From positions 1,262-65,261 of the forward strand of contig JAGLXN010000007.1 of NCBI GenBank assembly GCA_023132875.1: a stretch of DNA of 64,000 bases, written 5' to 3'. Positions 35,113 to 59,509 of the stretch are shown piece by piece; position 1 is the first letter of the stretch; every line of letters starts with the position of its first letter. The stretch is from Candidatus Parcubacteria bacterium. Lineage in GTDB: Bacteria; Patescibacteriota; Minisyncoccia; JAHIHE01; JAGLIN01. Under the pieces are notes generated by a model. The model saw only the letters and a program-made list of their open reading frames with translations, was not told the DNA's origin and did not search any database. The translations under genes were made by a program, and so were the position numbers.

Positions 35113-35682
35113 TTACAATTCAATTCCATCAACCAGCTCCTCATAATTTAAACTTGTATATTTCCAATTCTCTGGCAATTTATGTTTTTGAAAATTATAT
35201 ATTGTATAATGGTAATGGTTTTTAAAATCTTTCGCGTCTCTTATTATGTGGTCATAAAATGATTTTTGCCATTTGAATTTTGGGATTAAAGTTTGATTTT
35301 GTACGTGTTTTTGGATAAATTTGGTTTGATAATTTTTAATTAGATCCCGCATCCGAAGGCGACACGTCGACGTGTCGCCTTCGTTATGATTATTCATAAT
35401 AATATAATTTATATCCCTTGATATATTCTCTTTTAATGACCTCATTATTTTTGAAATATTAAATTCATTATTTGGATGAATCATTAAATTTAAATGATCA
35501 TAAATTATGCAAAACCCATATAATTTAAATTTCTTTACTTCTTTACATAATTTTAATTCTTCAACCAACAATTCGCAAAATATTAACTCTTTAAAATACG
35601 GAAAATTTTGAAATGTTTTTGTGACGATGAAATAAACATTATTATCTATAAAATCACGCTTTTGTGAATTGCGATGCTGCAT
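35113..35682 (-). mobile_element. REP-associated tyrosine transposase (RAYT / IS200-like Y1) family protein, HUH motif degenerate
   Basis: C-terminal KWQKSFYDHIIRD..NHYHYTIYN matches the RAYT WQ(R/K)x(Y/F)(Y/W)DHxIR...YIxxNP motif. The HUH position reads DHLNL. A REP-like palindrome lies inside the ORF. Confidence 0.55.
35352..35381. repeat. REP-like perfect palindrome cgaaggcgacacgtcgacgtgtcgccttcg
   Basis: 30-bp perfect palindrome, GC-rich, in frame within the RAYT gene. A related copy is at 62825..62851. Confidence 0.85.
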
Positions 35683-56239: not shown

Positions 56240-56806
56240 ATGAAAAAAATAAAAATAGGGGTTTCGGGAGATGTTGGCAGTTTTTCAGAGCAAGCCACGA
56301 ATGAATACGCCAGAAAAAACGGAATTAAAAACTATGAAATTAAGTGCCTTATTTCCGTAGAAAAAGTACTCACTGAACTTGACAAAAAGAAAATAGATCT
56401 TGGAATTTTTCCTATTGAAAATTCAAATGGCGGGATTGTGATTGAAAGCGTAAATGCAATCAGCAAGCATATTTTTAAAATAAAAAATATTTTTGAAATC
56501 CCGGTAATTCATTGTTTGTTGACAAAACCCGGTATTGAAAAAGAGGATATAAAAAATATAGCTTCTCATGATCAAGCTTTAAAGCAATGCAAAATGTATT
56601 TAAAAAGAAAATGGACAGAAACTCAATTGCAGGAAACTAAAGATACAGCAAAATCAGCAAAAGATCTTTCAGAAGGAAAATTATCTGAAGACACCGCGGT
56701 CCTCGCTCCTGAAAGCTGCGCCACTTTATACGGCCTTATCGTTATGGAAAAAGGAATCCAGGATTTAAAATTTAATTTCACGAATTTTTTGGCAGTGGAG
56801 AAGTAG
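56240..56806 (+). CDS. prephenate dehydratase (PDT) catalytic-domain protein without ACT domain, paralog 1
   Basis: The IGVSGDVGSFSEQA, FPIENSNGG and SHDQALKQC segments follow the PDT-domain pattern. The catalytic TRF motif reads FTNF. 188 aa, so there is no room for the regulatory ACT domain. Confidence 0.7.
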   Translation: MKKIKIGVSGDVGSFSEQATNEYARKNGIKNYEIKCLISVEKVLTELDKKKIDLGIFPIENSNGGIVIESVNAISKHIFKIKNIFEIPVIHCLLTKPGIEKEDIKNIASHDQALKQCKMYLKRKWTETQLQETKDTAKSAKDLSEGKLSEDTAVLAPESCATLYGLIVMEKGIQDLKFNFTNFLAVEK

Positions 56807-56882
56807 GAATATATTATAAAATCTTATTTAAAAATTAAACTATGTAAATAAAAAAATAGAGAGTGAAGTTTCACTCTCATTT

Positions 56883-57710
56883 TTAAATTGTCTCTGCTTT
56901 TGGATAAGATCCTAAAACAACTATCTCTTTCACTTTACTAATTACTTCTGTTAACGCATTTTTGAAATTTTCATCATCACAATGACCATCTGCATCAACA
57001 AAGAATGTCCGAGAACTCGATATCTCTTCTGCAGGAAGAGACGAAAGCATTGTCATATTTATTTTGTTCTTTGTAAATATGTGCAAAACTTTTTCTAAGG
57101 AACCAGCCTTATCCTCTACCTTAAAGAATAATGTTGTTTTATCTTTTCCCGTAGGTTTTGTTTTATTTTTATTTAAGAGCATAAATCTTGTTATATTATC
57201 TCCTTGATCATTTATATCTCTTTCTATAATCGCAATATTAAATTCCTTTGAAGCTTCTTCAGAGCCAATCGCTGCAATTGACTTATCCTTTGTTTTTGAA
57301 GCCAACTCAACGGCTTCTGCCGTGCTATTAGTTATTTTTATACAAATATCATTTAATCCTCCTAAATATCCAATACACTGCATAATCCCCTGCGAATGAG
57401 AATAAACAACTTTAACATCTTCTATCTTGCCATAACCAACAAGACACTGTTGAATTTTAAGATATAGTTCTCTAATACCGTAAAATGGCTTCATCAATTG
57501 TAGTTCTTTTAGCACATCAATAACTGCCTTTCCTGTTGAATTTGATATAGGAACAACAATTTCATCTACTTCATTATTTTTAAAAGCCTCAATCAAACTT
57601 TTAAAGTCTGAATGAAACACTATTTTAGTTTCATTGTATTTCTTTGCAAACTTAATAGTAGCAACATGAGAAAAGGTCGCTGCTGGACCTAAGCATCCGA
57701 TTGTTATCAT
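56883..57710 (-). CDS. pheA: prephenate dehydratase (PDT + ACT domains)
   Basis: GPAATFSH, NITRFMLL (TRF motif) and ACT-domain ESRP-equivalent LSSLPAEEI are present. Start reassigned to MITIG (ATG at 57710), which sits 9 nt after AAGGAGG. Confidence 0.75.
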   Translation of the reverse strand: MITIGCLGPAATFSHVATIKFAKKYNETKIVFHSDFKSLIEAFKNNEVDEIVVPISNSTGKAVIDVLKELQLMKPFYGIRELYLKIQQCLVGYGKIEDVKVVYSHSQGIMQCIGYLGGLNDICIKITNSTAEAVELASKTKDKSIAAIGSEEASKEFNIAIIERDINDQGDNITRFMLLNKNKTKPTGKDKTTLFFKVEDKAGSLEKVLHIFTKNKINMTMLSSLPAEEISSSRTFFVDADGHCDDENFKNALTEVISKVKEIVVLGSYPKAETI

Positions 57711-57744
57711 CTTATGATTCCTCCTTATATTGTAAATGTGCAGA

Positions 57745-57820
57745 ATGTCCTGGGTAAGATTTGAACTCACGACTCCATGCTTTTCACACAGACTCTATGC
57801 CAAACTAAGACACTAGGGCT
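57745..57820 (-). other. tRNA-like fragment (T-arm plus 3' acceptor half), possible tRNA pseudogene or integration-site remnant
   Basis: Minus strand reads gtgag-TTCAAAT-cttac followed by ccaggac, i.e. a T-stem-loop plus a 7-nt 3' acceptor strand. The matching 5' acceptor strand (gccctag) pairs at only 5/7, and the anticodon loop is non-canonical. Confidence 0.3.
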
Positions 57821-58169
57821 TTTTATTTTTATTTTTGTCCATTCAAGTGAACTTCTTTTTTGAATCCACCCTCTAAAATTTCAATAACTCTTGAAACCCT
57901 AAAGGGTAAATTCCATTTATTATAATTTTAAACATCAAAAAAACCATCTTTGCGATGGGCCATTATGAGAAATATTATACTAAAACAACAACCTATCGCA
58001 TATGACGGCTAAAAAAGCTAAAAAAGAAAAATTGGCTGTTTTTTGTATAATTCATAAAATTTTCAACTTATAAACATAATATAGCATACATAAAAAATAT
58101 GTCAATATTTTTGTGACTATTTCACATTTTTATGATAAAATAAGCTTATAAGCATTAAATCCATCAAAA

Positions 58170-58736
58170 ATGAAAAAACTAAAAATAGGAGTCTCAGGCA
58201 ATGTTGGCAGTTTTTCAGAAGAGGCCGCCAATTATTATTGCCACAATAATAATATAAAAAATTATGAAATTCAGTATTTAATAAGCGTCAAGAACACAAT
58301 GGAAGCCCTAAAAAAGGGCGAGATAGACAAGGGCATTTTTCCAATTGAAAATTCAAATGGAGGCATCGTTCATGAAGCGATTTATGCTATGAGCGAATAT
58401 GTTTTTGATATTGAAAATATATTTGAGATTGACGTTAAGCACTGCTTGCTTGCAAAACCGGGAACAAAAGCAAACGACATAAAAAAAATAGCTTCCCATC
58501 CGCAGGCGCTCAAACAATGCAGAATGTATTTGAAGAAAAAATGGGGGAATCTTCAATTACAGGAATATTCTGACACAGCTGACGCGGCAAAAGACTTGCG
58601 TGAAGGAAAAATTCCCCCCGACACCGGAGTAATCGCTTGTAAAAAATGCGCAAAATTATATGAATTGAACCTGCTTGAAGAAGGAATACAAGATTTGAAA
58701 TTCAACTTCACGACATTTATAACGGCGACTATGTAA
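58170..58736 (+). CDS. prephenate dehydratase (PDT) catalytic-domain protein without ACT domain, paralog 2
   Basis: About 55% identical to 56240..56806. The catalytic motif reads FTTF. Confidence 0.7.
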   Translation: MKKLKIGVSGNVGSFSEEAANYYCHNNNIKNYEIQYLISVKNTMEALKKGEIDKGIFPIENSNGGIVHEAIYAMSEYVFDIENIFEIDVKHCLLAKPGTKANDIKKIASHPQALKQCRMYLKKKWGNLQLQEYSDTADAAKDLREGKIPPDTGVIACKKCAKLYELNLLEEGIQDLKFNFTTFITATM

Positions 58737-58930: not shown

Positions 58931-59509
58931 TTATTTTTCCCTCCTCCATCTTTTTAAAAAATTGCACAAAATAATATTGGTTTCCATACCCAAGGATCTG
59001 TCTTGAGCTTTTGTTTCACATTCCATTATGATAAATGAAATTTATTAATTGCGCCGTCCCCTCTCAGGACAAATTCTATCTATAATTTCGTTATAAACAA
59101 AATTTGTCCTGAGAAGATGATACTTTTATTTTTGCTATAAAAAAGCCTACCTATTGCGTAGGTTGCTTTTAATTTGGTCTCTTCTCTATTCTTTATTTTT
59201 AACCAGATTAAAAGCAAACTACCTAATTAGTAGGCTAATCACTTTCACAGTATAAGCAGTAACAACTCTGCTAATTGCAGCACCATAAGTCTCCATAAAA
59301 GTTTTTTACTTTATTACTAAACAGTAGACTTGTTGCGTAATTAATTTCGTAGCGTCCGCCCTGAGCGGATGAGACAAATTTTTCAAACAATTCTTGAGGT
59401 TTAGCCTAAGCTAAGCTGAAGAAATTTTTGGAAAATTTGACCAAAATATGGAAATTGCAGTAGGAACTAATTACGTGACAAGTCTAATATAGCAGGTTTA
59501 AAGAATTTG

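Follow-up and report, generated by a model that had tools for sequence, protein, structure and literature searches.

A cluster of three genes whose products carry a prephenate dehydratase (PDT) domain is found on contig JAGLXN010000007.1 of a Candidatus Parcubacteria bacterium (assembly GCA_023132875.1), inside the stretch of 64,000 nucleotides analyzed in this work and called the window in what follows. The two outer genes, wA and wC, encode short proteins that lack an ACT domain, and the gene placed between them, pheA, is read from the opposite strand and encodes an ACT-bearing protein. Judged from their sequences, wA and wC belong, as paralogs of old origin, to a short prephenate dehydratase family that extends across the Patescibacteria, and they most likely are unregulated prephenate or arogenate dehydratases. 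Taken as a whole, we hold as reasonably probable an explanation in which the short proteins are the dehydratases of the phenylalanine (Phe) pathway, pheA was acquired and is subject to attenuation, and a tRNA-like sequence in front of pheA is a relic. Phe biosynthesis has been retained in this lineage, in an ordinary but as yet uncharacterised variant, and the locus includes the following features:

56240..56806, + strand: wA, ACT-less single-domain PDT of 188 aa, A-type paralog with motif NFTNF (Pfam PDT E=2.8e-43, 148.3 bits); NCBI MCK4591927.1, named 'prephenate dehydratase'
56859..56878, no strand: bidirectional terminator-like hairpin between the convergent genes wA and pheA (8-bp stem, T-runs on both strands)
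56883..57710, - strand: pheA, PDT plus ACT, 275 aa (Pfam PDT 1.7e-43, 148.9 bits; ACT 8.9e-08); NCBI MCK4591928.1, named 'ACT domain-containing protein'
57708..57726, - strand: Shine-Dalgarno sequence (AAGGAGG) and start codon of pheA (direct reading of the sequence)
57746..57819, - strand: degenerate tRNA-Phe(GAA) gene, probable pseudogene, between the attenuator and pheA (Rfam tRNA, 33.1 bits)
57862..57914, - strand: conserved long hairpin with a 23-bp stem, placed after the attenuator and ahead of the tRNA-like sequence (folding and relatives)
57937..58010, - strand: predicted attenuator RNA (terminator scan, folding and consensus structure)
57993..58055, - strand: open reading frame (ORF) of 20 codons for the leader peptide MNYTKNSQFFFFSFFSRHMR, with 6 Phe in 7 consecutive codons, followed by a stop codon
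58078..58105, - strand: promoter-like site TTGACA-16-TATATT (TG-extended) for the leader/tRNA/pheA transcript (11/12 consensus matches)
58170..58736, + strand: wC, ACT-less single-domain PDT of 188 aa, C-type paralog with motif NFTTF (Pfam PDT 5.4e-44, 150.6 bits); NCBI MCK4591929.1, named 'hypothetical protein'

The three proteins match the PDT domain (PF00800) far above the cut-off of 25.2 bits, with E values of about 1e-43, and the ACT domain (PF01842) is matched in pheA only (32.2 bits; cut-off, 27). The initial annotation of this DNA, made from the sequence alone, had recognized three PDT genes with the middle one on the opposite strand, and flanking copies of 188 aa without ACT in which the TRF motif is replaced by TNF or TTF, with the Thr kept and the Arg lost; the ORFs and the Pfam matches bear out this description. 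Its value of about 55% identity between wA and wC was too low, since the measured identity is 63% (118/186); the identity of either protein to the PDT domain of pheA is only 25-27%. The C-terminal motif reads FNFTNF in wA, FNFTTF in wC and DNITRF in pheA, that is, the Arg of TRF corresponds to Asn in wA and to Thr in wC, and the chains of the short proteins stop 5 residues past the TxF motif. The AlphaFold2 model of wC has a predicted local distance difference test (pLDDT) score of 94 and shows the PDT fold; its top matches in the PDB are solved PDTs, with template-modelling (TM) scores of 0.84-0.89. The scores obtained with the NCBIfam equivalog for PDT (NF008865) are 117.4 for wA, 195.5 for pheA and 122.2 for wC, all of them below the cut-off of 219. 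The public annotation of these proteins varies from 'prephenate dehydratase' to 'hypothetical protein' or 'ACT domain-containing protein'.

A search with wC retrieved 1849 related protein clusters, the best 120 of which are 65-98% identical to the query, about 190 aa long and formed by the PDT domain only; nearly all the named members among these 120 are labelled Patescibacteria. In 122 family sequences the motifs GxxGSFSEEAA, FPIENSNGGIV.E, SH.QALKQC, DTA.AA and LKFNFT.F are essentially invariant, and the alignment of the family has 44 invariant columns. Residues N179, T181 and F183 do not vary in these 122 members, and wA, pheA and wC all have them; it has been reported that mutation of the Thr of TRF abolishes activity (PMC11980547). 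At the position of the TRF Arg the same sequences show Thr (108), Ser (10), Ala (3) or Asn (1). A scan of species-representative genomes detected a relative in 259 genomes, and the best 79 loci, on which all the locus counts given below are based, are largely labelled as Patescibacteria lineages, the rest having uninformative or conflicting labels of metagenome-assembled genomes. By this distribution, the short PDT is the standard PDT of Patescibacteria.

An exhaustive HMMER search yielded 8184 homologues, and the 150 closest representatives, from which the class counts were taken, are mostly ACT-less, either as standalone proteins of about 190 aa or as fusions to chorismate mutase (CM; 32 representatives) or to a TyrA-type dehydrogenase (20 representatives). 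The Arg is missing in 132 of the 135 ACT-less representatives with a readable motif and kept in three of the four with ACT, and among the ACT-bearing homologues of pheA 97% have Arg at the TRF position. A neighbour-joining tree has the ACT-bearing TRF sequences in one half and those without ACT and Arg in the other; wA and wC are placed together in a tight clade of the candidate phyla radiation (CPR), and pheA appears as a long branch in the ACT-bearing half. From these counts and from the split of the tree it follows that the altered motif is a class trait and not the outcome of local decay. Both classes share N61, G65, V67, H110, Q112, Q116, C117, T136, N179, T181 and F183, and they differ at three positions (wC numbering):

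Position 17: Glu in the ACT-less class, His in the ACT-bearing class
Position 135: Asp in the ACT-less class, Ser in the ACT-bearing class
Position 182: Thr, Ser or other in the ACT-less class, Arg in the ACT-bearing class

An origin of wA and wC as recent duplicates of pheA is ruled out by the 25-27% identity and by their separate deep clades; the short copies, previously viewed as aberrant derivatives of pheA, do not group with it and belong to a deep, separate ACT-less class that is standard in Patescibacteria. The fact that the loss of the Arg tracks the loss of ACT across a whole class of PDTs corrects the view of TRF as an indispensable triad, and E17, D135 and a residue other than Arg at position 182 offer a testable signature of an uncharacterised enzyme class.

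The view of wA and wC as true cyclohexadienyl dehydratases is based mainly on the links of their family, through operons and fusions, to enzymes that make or use prephenate. A TyrA homologue is found directly downstream of the short PDT in 42 of the 79 loci; 18 of these 42 are of the long size, and the three long TyrAs that were scanned are fusions of TyrA with CM_2. The next gene after TyrA encodes an aminotransferase in 32 loci, and a standalone CM gene is present directly upstream of the short PDT in 7. An unbiased clustering of the neighbouring ORFs, which is a looser criterion, also showed enrichment of TyrA (48 loci) and of the aminotransferase (41 loci), and nothing else was enriched around the 79 loci, the next families being TopA (10) and an unannotated family of 200 aa (9). 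The pathway operons that include the short PDT contain no other dehydratase. In these operons the short protein would perform the dehydratase step of a post-chorismate module together with CM, the TyrA dehydrogenase and the aminotransferase; wA and wC would convert prephenate to phenylpyruvate, or arogenate to Phe, by decarboxylative dehydration and without feedback inhibition. Many Patescibacteria lineages keep a compact post-chorismate module of this kind for Phe and tyrosine (Tyr).

Two types can be distinguished within the family. A-type orthologs occur in nine relatives besides the window, usually directly after topA, and are characterized by the invariant residues T95, T133, T162, I167, M169 and N182; the C-type, with TTF or TSF, is the widespread form and the first gene of the TyrA operon. 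Because these two fixed types recur across relatives, the duplication that separated them is old and both copies have been maintained. In the related locus L005 the orthologs of wA and wC are both 87% identical to the window proteins, versus 82% for TopA and 79% for DprA, and the possibility that wA and wC are decaying pseudo-enzymes is ruled out by the fact that they are conserved more than TopA between genomes.

A homologue 87% identical to wC is present in the locus L011 (Candidatus Paceibacterota RS_7_61, JAGLOZ010000029.1), where this gene and a TyrA gene are divergent from a complete shikimate operon (L011:538-9803). This operon encodes an AroD-AroE-AroK fusion, CM, an AroA-AroC fusion, a DeoC-type aldolase, a 3-dehydroquinate (DHQ) synthase II, an aspartate kinase and an aspartate semialdehyde (ASA) dehydrogenase; it is of the archaeal type that proceeds through ASA and 6-deoxy-5-ketofructose 1-phosphate (ASA/DKFP type), and it is preceded by a Phe-leader attenuator. 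No ACT-type pheA was found within reach of the wC homologue of L011. The best matches of the L011 AroA-AroC fusion are 62-66% identical to it and include proteins labelled DPANN archaea, a similarity that suggests a transfer of this fusion from an archaeon to CPR. The earlier remark that reduced genomes rarely keep amino-acid biosynthesis is thus partly right, but it does not hold for L011, which has the complete shikimate operon at this very locus; the picture of auxotrophy in Patescibacteria is refined by the locus, and current understanding is not overturned.

The window itself contains no aromatic-pathway genes besides the PDT trio, as had been noted before; this was observed in Pfam scans of nearly all its ORFs of at least 120 aa, and no match was found in the 64 kb when CM, prephenate dehydrogenase, aminotransferase and shikimate enzymes of close relatives were used as tblastn queries. 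The TyrA gene found after wC in L011 is deleted in the window and its flanking non-coding DNA remains, and the aminotransferase gene located upstream of pheA in L005 and L010 is absent. Over 379 nt, the non-coding stretch 58951-59326, 3' of wC, shares 74% identity with the L011 segment that separates the TyrA gene from a family 2 glycosyltransferase (GT2) gene, and the hairpins of the window stretch include a spurious microRNA-like Rfam match (59049-59125) and a terminator-like site (59144-59164). The content of the window is that of a typical member of Patescibacteria (CPR), with genes for ATP synthase, FtsZ/FtsA, NrdD, ComEC, DprA, TopA and glycosyltransferases; beside comEC, a 189-aa ORF (35113-35682, - strand) gives a weak match to IS200-like Y1 transposases (28 bits).

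In the center of the block, pheA is a separate ACT-bearing gene that is restricted to one small clade and was probably acquired. Its most likely start is the ATG at 57710, which gives the 275 aa of the public gene calls. The GTG at 57770, where the ORF was placed mechanically, would lead to an overlap with the tRNA-like sequence. Only 11 clusters are at least 66% identical to pheA, the next matches, at 40% or less, being CM-PDT-ACT proteins of unrelated phyla, and a metagenome scan with pheA as query returned a single locus. The pheA proteins of the window and L005 are 46% identical, compared with 79-87% for the products of the flanking genes, and this low value suggests either replacement or very fast evolution. 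The gene had been called a canonical pheA, a description that stands for the PDT plus ACT architecture and for the intact TRF but not for the remaining motifs: PISNS appears where ENS is expected, SHSQ where SHPQ is, and SSLP where the ACT motif ESRP is, in addition to the NF008865 score below the cut-off. The Glu of ENS is lacking in the whole clade, which shows SNS in the window and ANS or KNS in relatives, and in the same clade (the window protein and P0272-P0281) ESRP is changed to SSLP or similar. From these substitutions, feedback inhibition by Phe may have been lost in the pheA clade, with attenuation taking over the control.

The slot between wA and wC holds other cargo in relatives. 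The previous suggestion of a duplicated or acquired island therefore applies to the middle of the block, which looks exchangeable in view of the small-clade pheA, the 46% identity against 79-87% for the flanks, and the variable cargo. In L005 (9405-9578, - strand), and in the equivalent place of L010, the Phe leader and the aminotransferase gene are separated by a conserved ORF of 57 aa, which matches no Pfam family and is missing from the window. In L023 (3586-4884, - strand) the same slot contains the Phe leader followed by a gene whose 432-aa product matches no Pfam family and then by an M20 peptidase gene.

Upstream of pheA, on its strand, the order of elements is the promoter-like site, the leader ORF, the attenuator stem and terminator, the 23-bp hairpin, the tRNA-like sequence and the ribosome binding site of pheA. 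Of the 386 short ATG-ORFs in the window, the leader ORF alone has a run of 7 residues that includes at least 6 Phe. In the predicted fold of the attenuator (z = -5.0), a long stem extends over the final codons of the leader and the 5' arm of the terminator and ends in the small hairpin CCATC-GCAAA-GATGG; the terminator, CCATCGCAAAGATGG followed by T7 (57937-57958), is conserved in all copies of the leader. The leader and the terminator are almost unchanged in 13 distinct copies from 12 genomes, with the Phe run present in every copy, and in most of the loci where the cargo behind the leader could be identified it is related to Phe:

Window: pheA
L005 and L010: 57-aa ORF, aminotransferase, second leader, pheA
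L033: aminotransferase
L011: shikimate operon
L014: bona fide tRNA-Phe(GAA)

No Rfam leader family was matched between 56700 and 59600 at E values up to 1, and an identity with a known Rfam leader or riboswitch was discarded for this region given that only spurious microRNA-like hairpins were matched. The perfect 23-bp hairpin at 57862-57914 (- strand) has no T-run and is preserved in those relatives in which the stretch is still present, where it shows some paired changes.

The design of the leader fits classical ribosome-mediated attenuation such as that described at pheL. A leader peptide rich in Phe codons and a terminator would gate the transcription of pheA, which sits in a cargo slot transcribed divergently from wC; when Phe-tRNA is scarce, the ribosome would stall at the FFFFSFF codons, the antiterminator would be freed and RNA polymerase would read through. 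We found no report of leader-peptide attenuation in Patescibacteria. If the prediction holds, one sublineage of this group puts Phe-related genes, a tRNA-Phe gene and one shikimate operon under this type of control.

The tRNA-like element that the initial annotation placed next to pheA was confirmed as a full-model Rfam match of 33.1 bits (gathering score, 29); its anticodon loop, GUGAAAA, has the GAA anticodon of Phe. It shows mismatches at pairs 2-71 and 6-67 of the acceptor stem, 13-22 of the D-stem and 28-42 of the anticodon stem, and ARAGORN called no tRNA anywhere in the window. The corresponding slot of L014, flanked by the A-type and C-type genes, contains, behind the same leader, an intact tRNA-Phe gene (detected by ARAGORN; 51.2 bits); the Phe leader and its terminator are directly 5' of this tRNA-Phe(GAA) gene (L014:9522-9822, - strand), so that the amino acid carried by this tRNA appears to control the tRNA gene through leader-peptide attenuation. 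A series of graded decay can be traced from L014 (51 bits) through the window (33) to L099 (26); the copies in L091, L093 and L100 are D-armless, and nothing is left in L089, L096 and L098. The simplest reading is that the sequence in the window is probably a decaying tRNA-Phe gene, which fits better because the sequence is orthologous to the real tRNA-Phe of L014; in mechanistic terms it would be the decaying ortholog of a tRNA gene controlled by the same attenuator in a relative. The graded decay argues against a regulatory tRNA mimic, and a T-box or a short attachment-site fragment fit less with the full-length tRNA match and the L014 ortholog. The relic also supports the entry of pheA into a pre-existing unit formed by the leader and tRNA-Phe.

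Several observations weigh against the explanation favoured here. TRF has been described as a critical triad (PMC13217925), and its Arg is missing in wA and wC; moreover, E17 and D135 make the cleft of the ACT-less proteins more acidic, which is awkward for the dianionic prephenate. The literature searched yielded no characterised member of the ACT-less, Arg-less class and nothing relevant on prephenate metabolism in CPR, Patescibacteria or Parcubacteria; the fusion protein of A. fulgidus was considered as an ACT-less precedent and ruled out, since it carries ACT (PMC1173090). The window lacks CM, TyrA and aminotransferase genes, so that a source of prephenate in this organism is putative, and an AroA-AroC of the L011 type from the 831-kb scaffold of this genome was not among the 120 matches listed, which is suggestive only. 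The three dehydratase genes in one small genome represent an unexplained redundancy. Regarding the attenuator, the alternative pairings are inferred from folding, and the consensus of 13 loci has 18 pairs with covariation in 1 of them, a value that is almost nil because the sequences are nearly invariant.

The acidic residues of the cleft bear directly on the proposal that the ACT-less, Arg-less class, including wA, wC or both, is formed by arogenate-preferring dehydratases. In this scheme the aminotransferase would make arogenate first, the dehydratase would convert it to Phe and TyrA would convert it to Tyr, and wA and wC might split the substrates. A different substrate had been suggested for the short copies, and the three class-specific changes (E for H17, D for S135 and the loss of Arg 182) give it some support as seen in the alignments: according to the description of the GqqA structure, positions 17 and 135 are at helix N-termini that point into the PDT cleft, where acidic residues would suit an ammonium group. 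In addition, the operon encodes exactly the four enzymes that the arogenate route needs, the precomputed Pfam matches on the neighbouring TyrA include TYRAAT1_C, and wA has fixed differences at Y133T, beside the DTA motif, and at position 182 (N). However, plant arogenate dehydratases keep TRF (PMC13217925), and the loss of the Arg is no known mark of specificity; the 32 CM-PDT fusions suggest a direct use of prephenate, and the NCBIfam scores of the adjacent TyrA and aminotransferase do not tell whether the prephenate or the arogenate route is followed. We therefore consider a preference for arogenate possible but rather unlikely, and unlikely to a greater degree the more specific version in which the whole class would be a dedicated dehydratase of arogenate, or of another amino-cyclohexadienyl compound, with distinct substrates for the A-type and the C-type. 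If this were true, genome-reduced Patescibacteria could finish Phe and Tyr from host-derived cyclohexadienyl intermediates instead of making them de novo.

A different chemistry on a cyclohexadienyl substrate, such as the non-aromatizing decarboxylation carried out by BacA, would yield products that are not destined to Phe. BacA was annotated as a prephenate dehydratase and yet is a decarboxylase (PMC2797259), and wA and wC, which are short, lack ACT and depart from TRF, score 117-122 with the PDT equivalog against the cut-off of 219. This reading is very improbable, considering that the catalytic core formed by Thr, Asn and Phe is invariant, that the Pfam PDT match is strong (1e-43), and that the neighbours are TyrA, CM and aminotransferase; secondary-metabolite partners, such as a BacB-like cupin, a reductase or a ligase, are not enriched in the 79 loci.

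We give still less credence to the idea that in this genome the trio is what is left of a pathway in the process of being lost, functionless or drifting for want of upstream supply. The window has no CM, TyrA or aminotransferase, in particular neither the TyrA of the L011 type nor the aminotransferase of the L005/L010 type; the tRNA-Phe gene is decaying, and ENS and ESRP are degenerate in pheA. Nevertheless, wA and wC are intact and, at 87% identity to their L005 orthologs, are above TopA or DprA, and the leader and its terminator and promoter have remained intact, with hardly any variation. Finally, a non-catalytic role in ligand binding or regulation, raised earlier on the basis of the periplasmic-binding-protein-like fold, and with which the weaker Foldseek matches of the wC model to LysR effector domains and solute-binding proteins and the missing Arg of the 'catalytic triad' would agree, is extremely unlikely because the known catalytic positions are invariant over hundreds of sequences and the domain is fused to CM and TyrA and occupies the place of the dehydratase in operons devoid of any other.

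The reading of wA and wC as dehydratases of the Phe pathway places them close to well-known enzymes. The catalytic domain of PheA (PF00800 plus ACT; Chlorobium tepidum 2qmx, Brucella 6vh5 and the P-protein of E. coli) has the same fold, with TM scores of 0.84-0.89, and wA and wC share with it the Asn of ENS, SH.Q..QC, TA.AA, the Thr and Phe of N.T.F, and a family context of CM, TyrA and aminotransferase. Unlike PheA, the short proteins have no ACT and hence no site for feedback by Phe, show Asn or Thr instead of the Arg of TRF, and carry E17 and D135. The BacA-type prephenate decarboxylases of bacilysin synthesis are likewise short, ACT-less homologues of PDT that take prephenate as substrate (PMC2797259). 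They are encoded in an antibiotic cluster with BacB and BacC, whereas the relatives of wA and wC are accompanied by TyrA, CM and aminotransferase. BacA is also not known to have the Thr of N.T.F, which is present in wA and wC.

With respect to the tRNA-like sequence, the comparison with tRNA-Phe (RF00005) reveals a full cloverleaf match with a GAA anticodon and a T-arm nearly identical to that of the L014 tRNA-Phe; in contrast to the latter, it has two mismatches in the acceptor stem, one in the anticodon stem and one in the D-stem, and scores 33 instead of 51 bits. The control region resembles the pheL attenuators of the pheA and pheST operons of γ-proteobacteria, a subdivision in which 53 pheL genes have been described (PMC3082878): in both cases an ORF with Phe codons and then an intrinsic terminator precede Phe-related genes, and, as folding indicates, the alternative pairing would overlap the end of the leader ORF here as it does at pheL. 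The arrangement described in this work differs from pheL in the host phylum, Patescibacteria, in a cargo that includes tRNA-Phe, an aminotransferase or a shikimate operon, and in the conserved 23-bp hairpin that follows the terminator.

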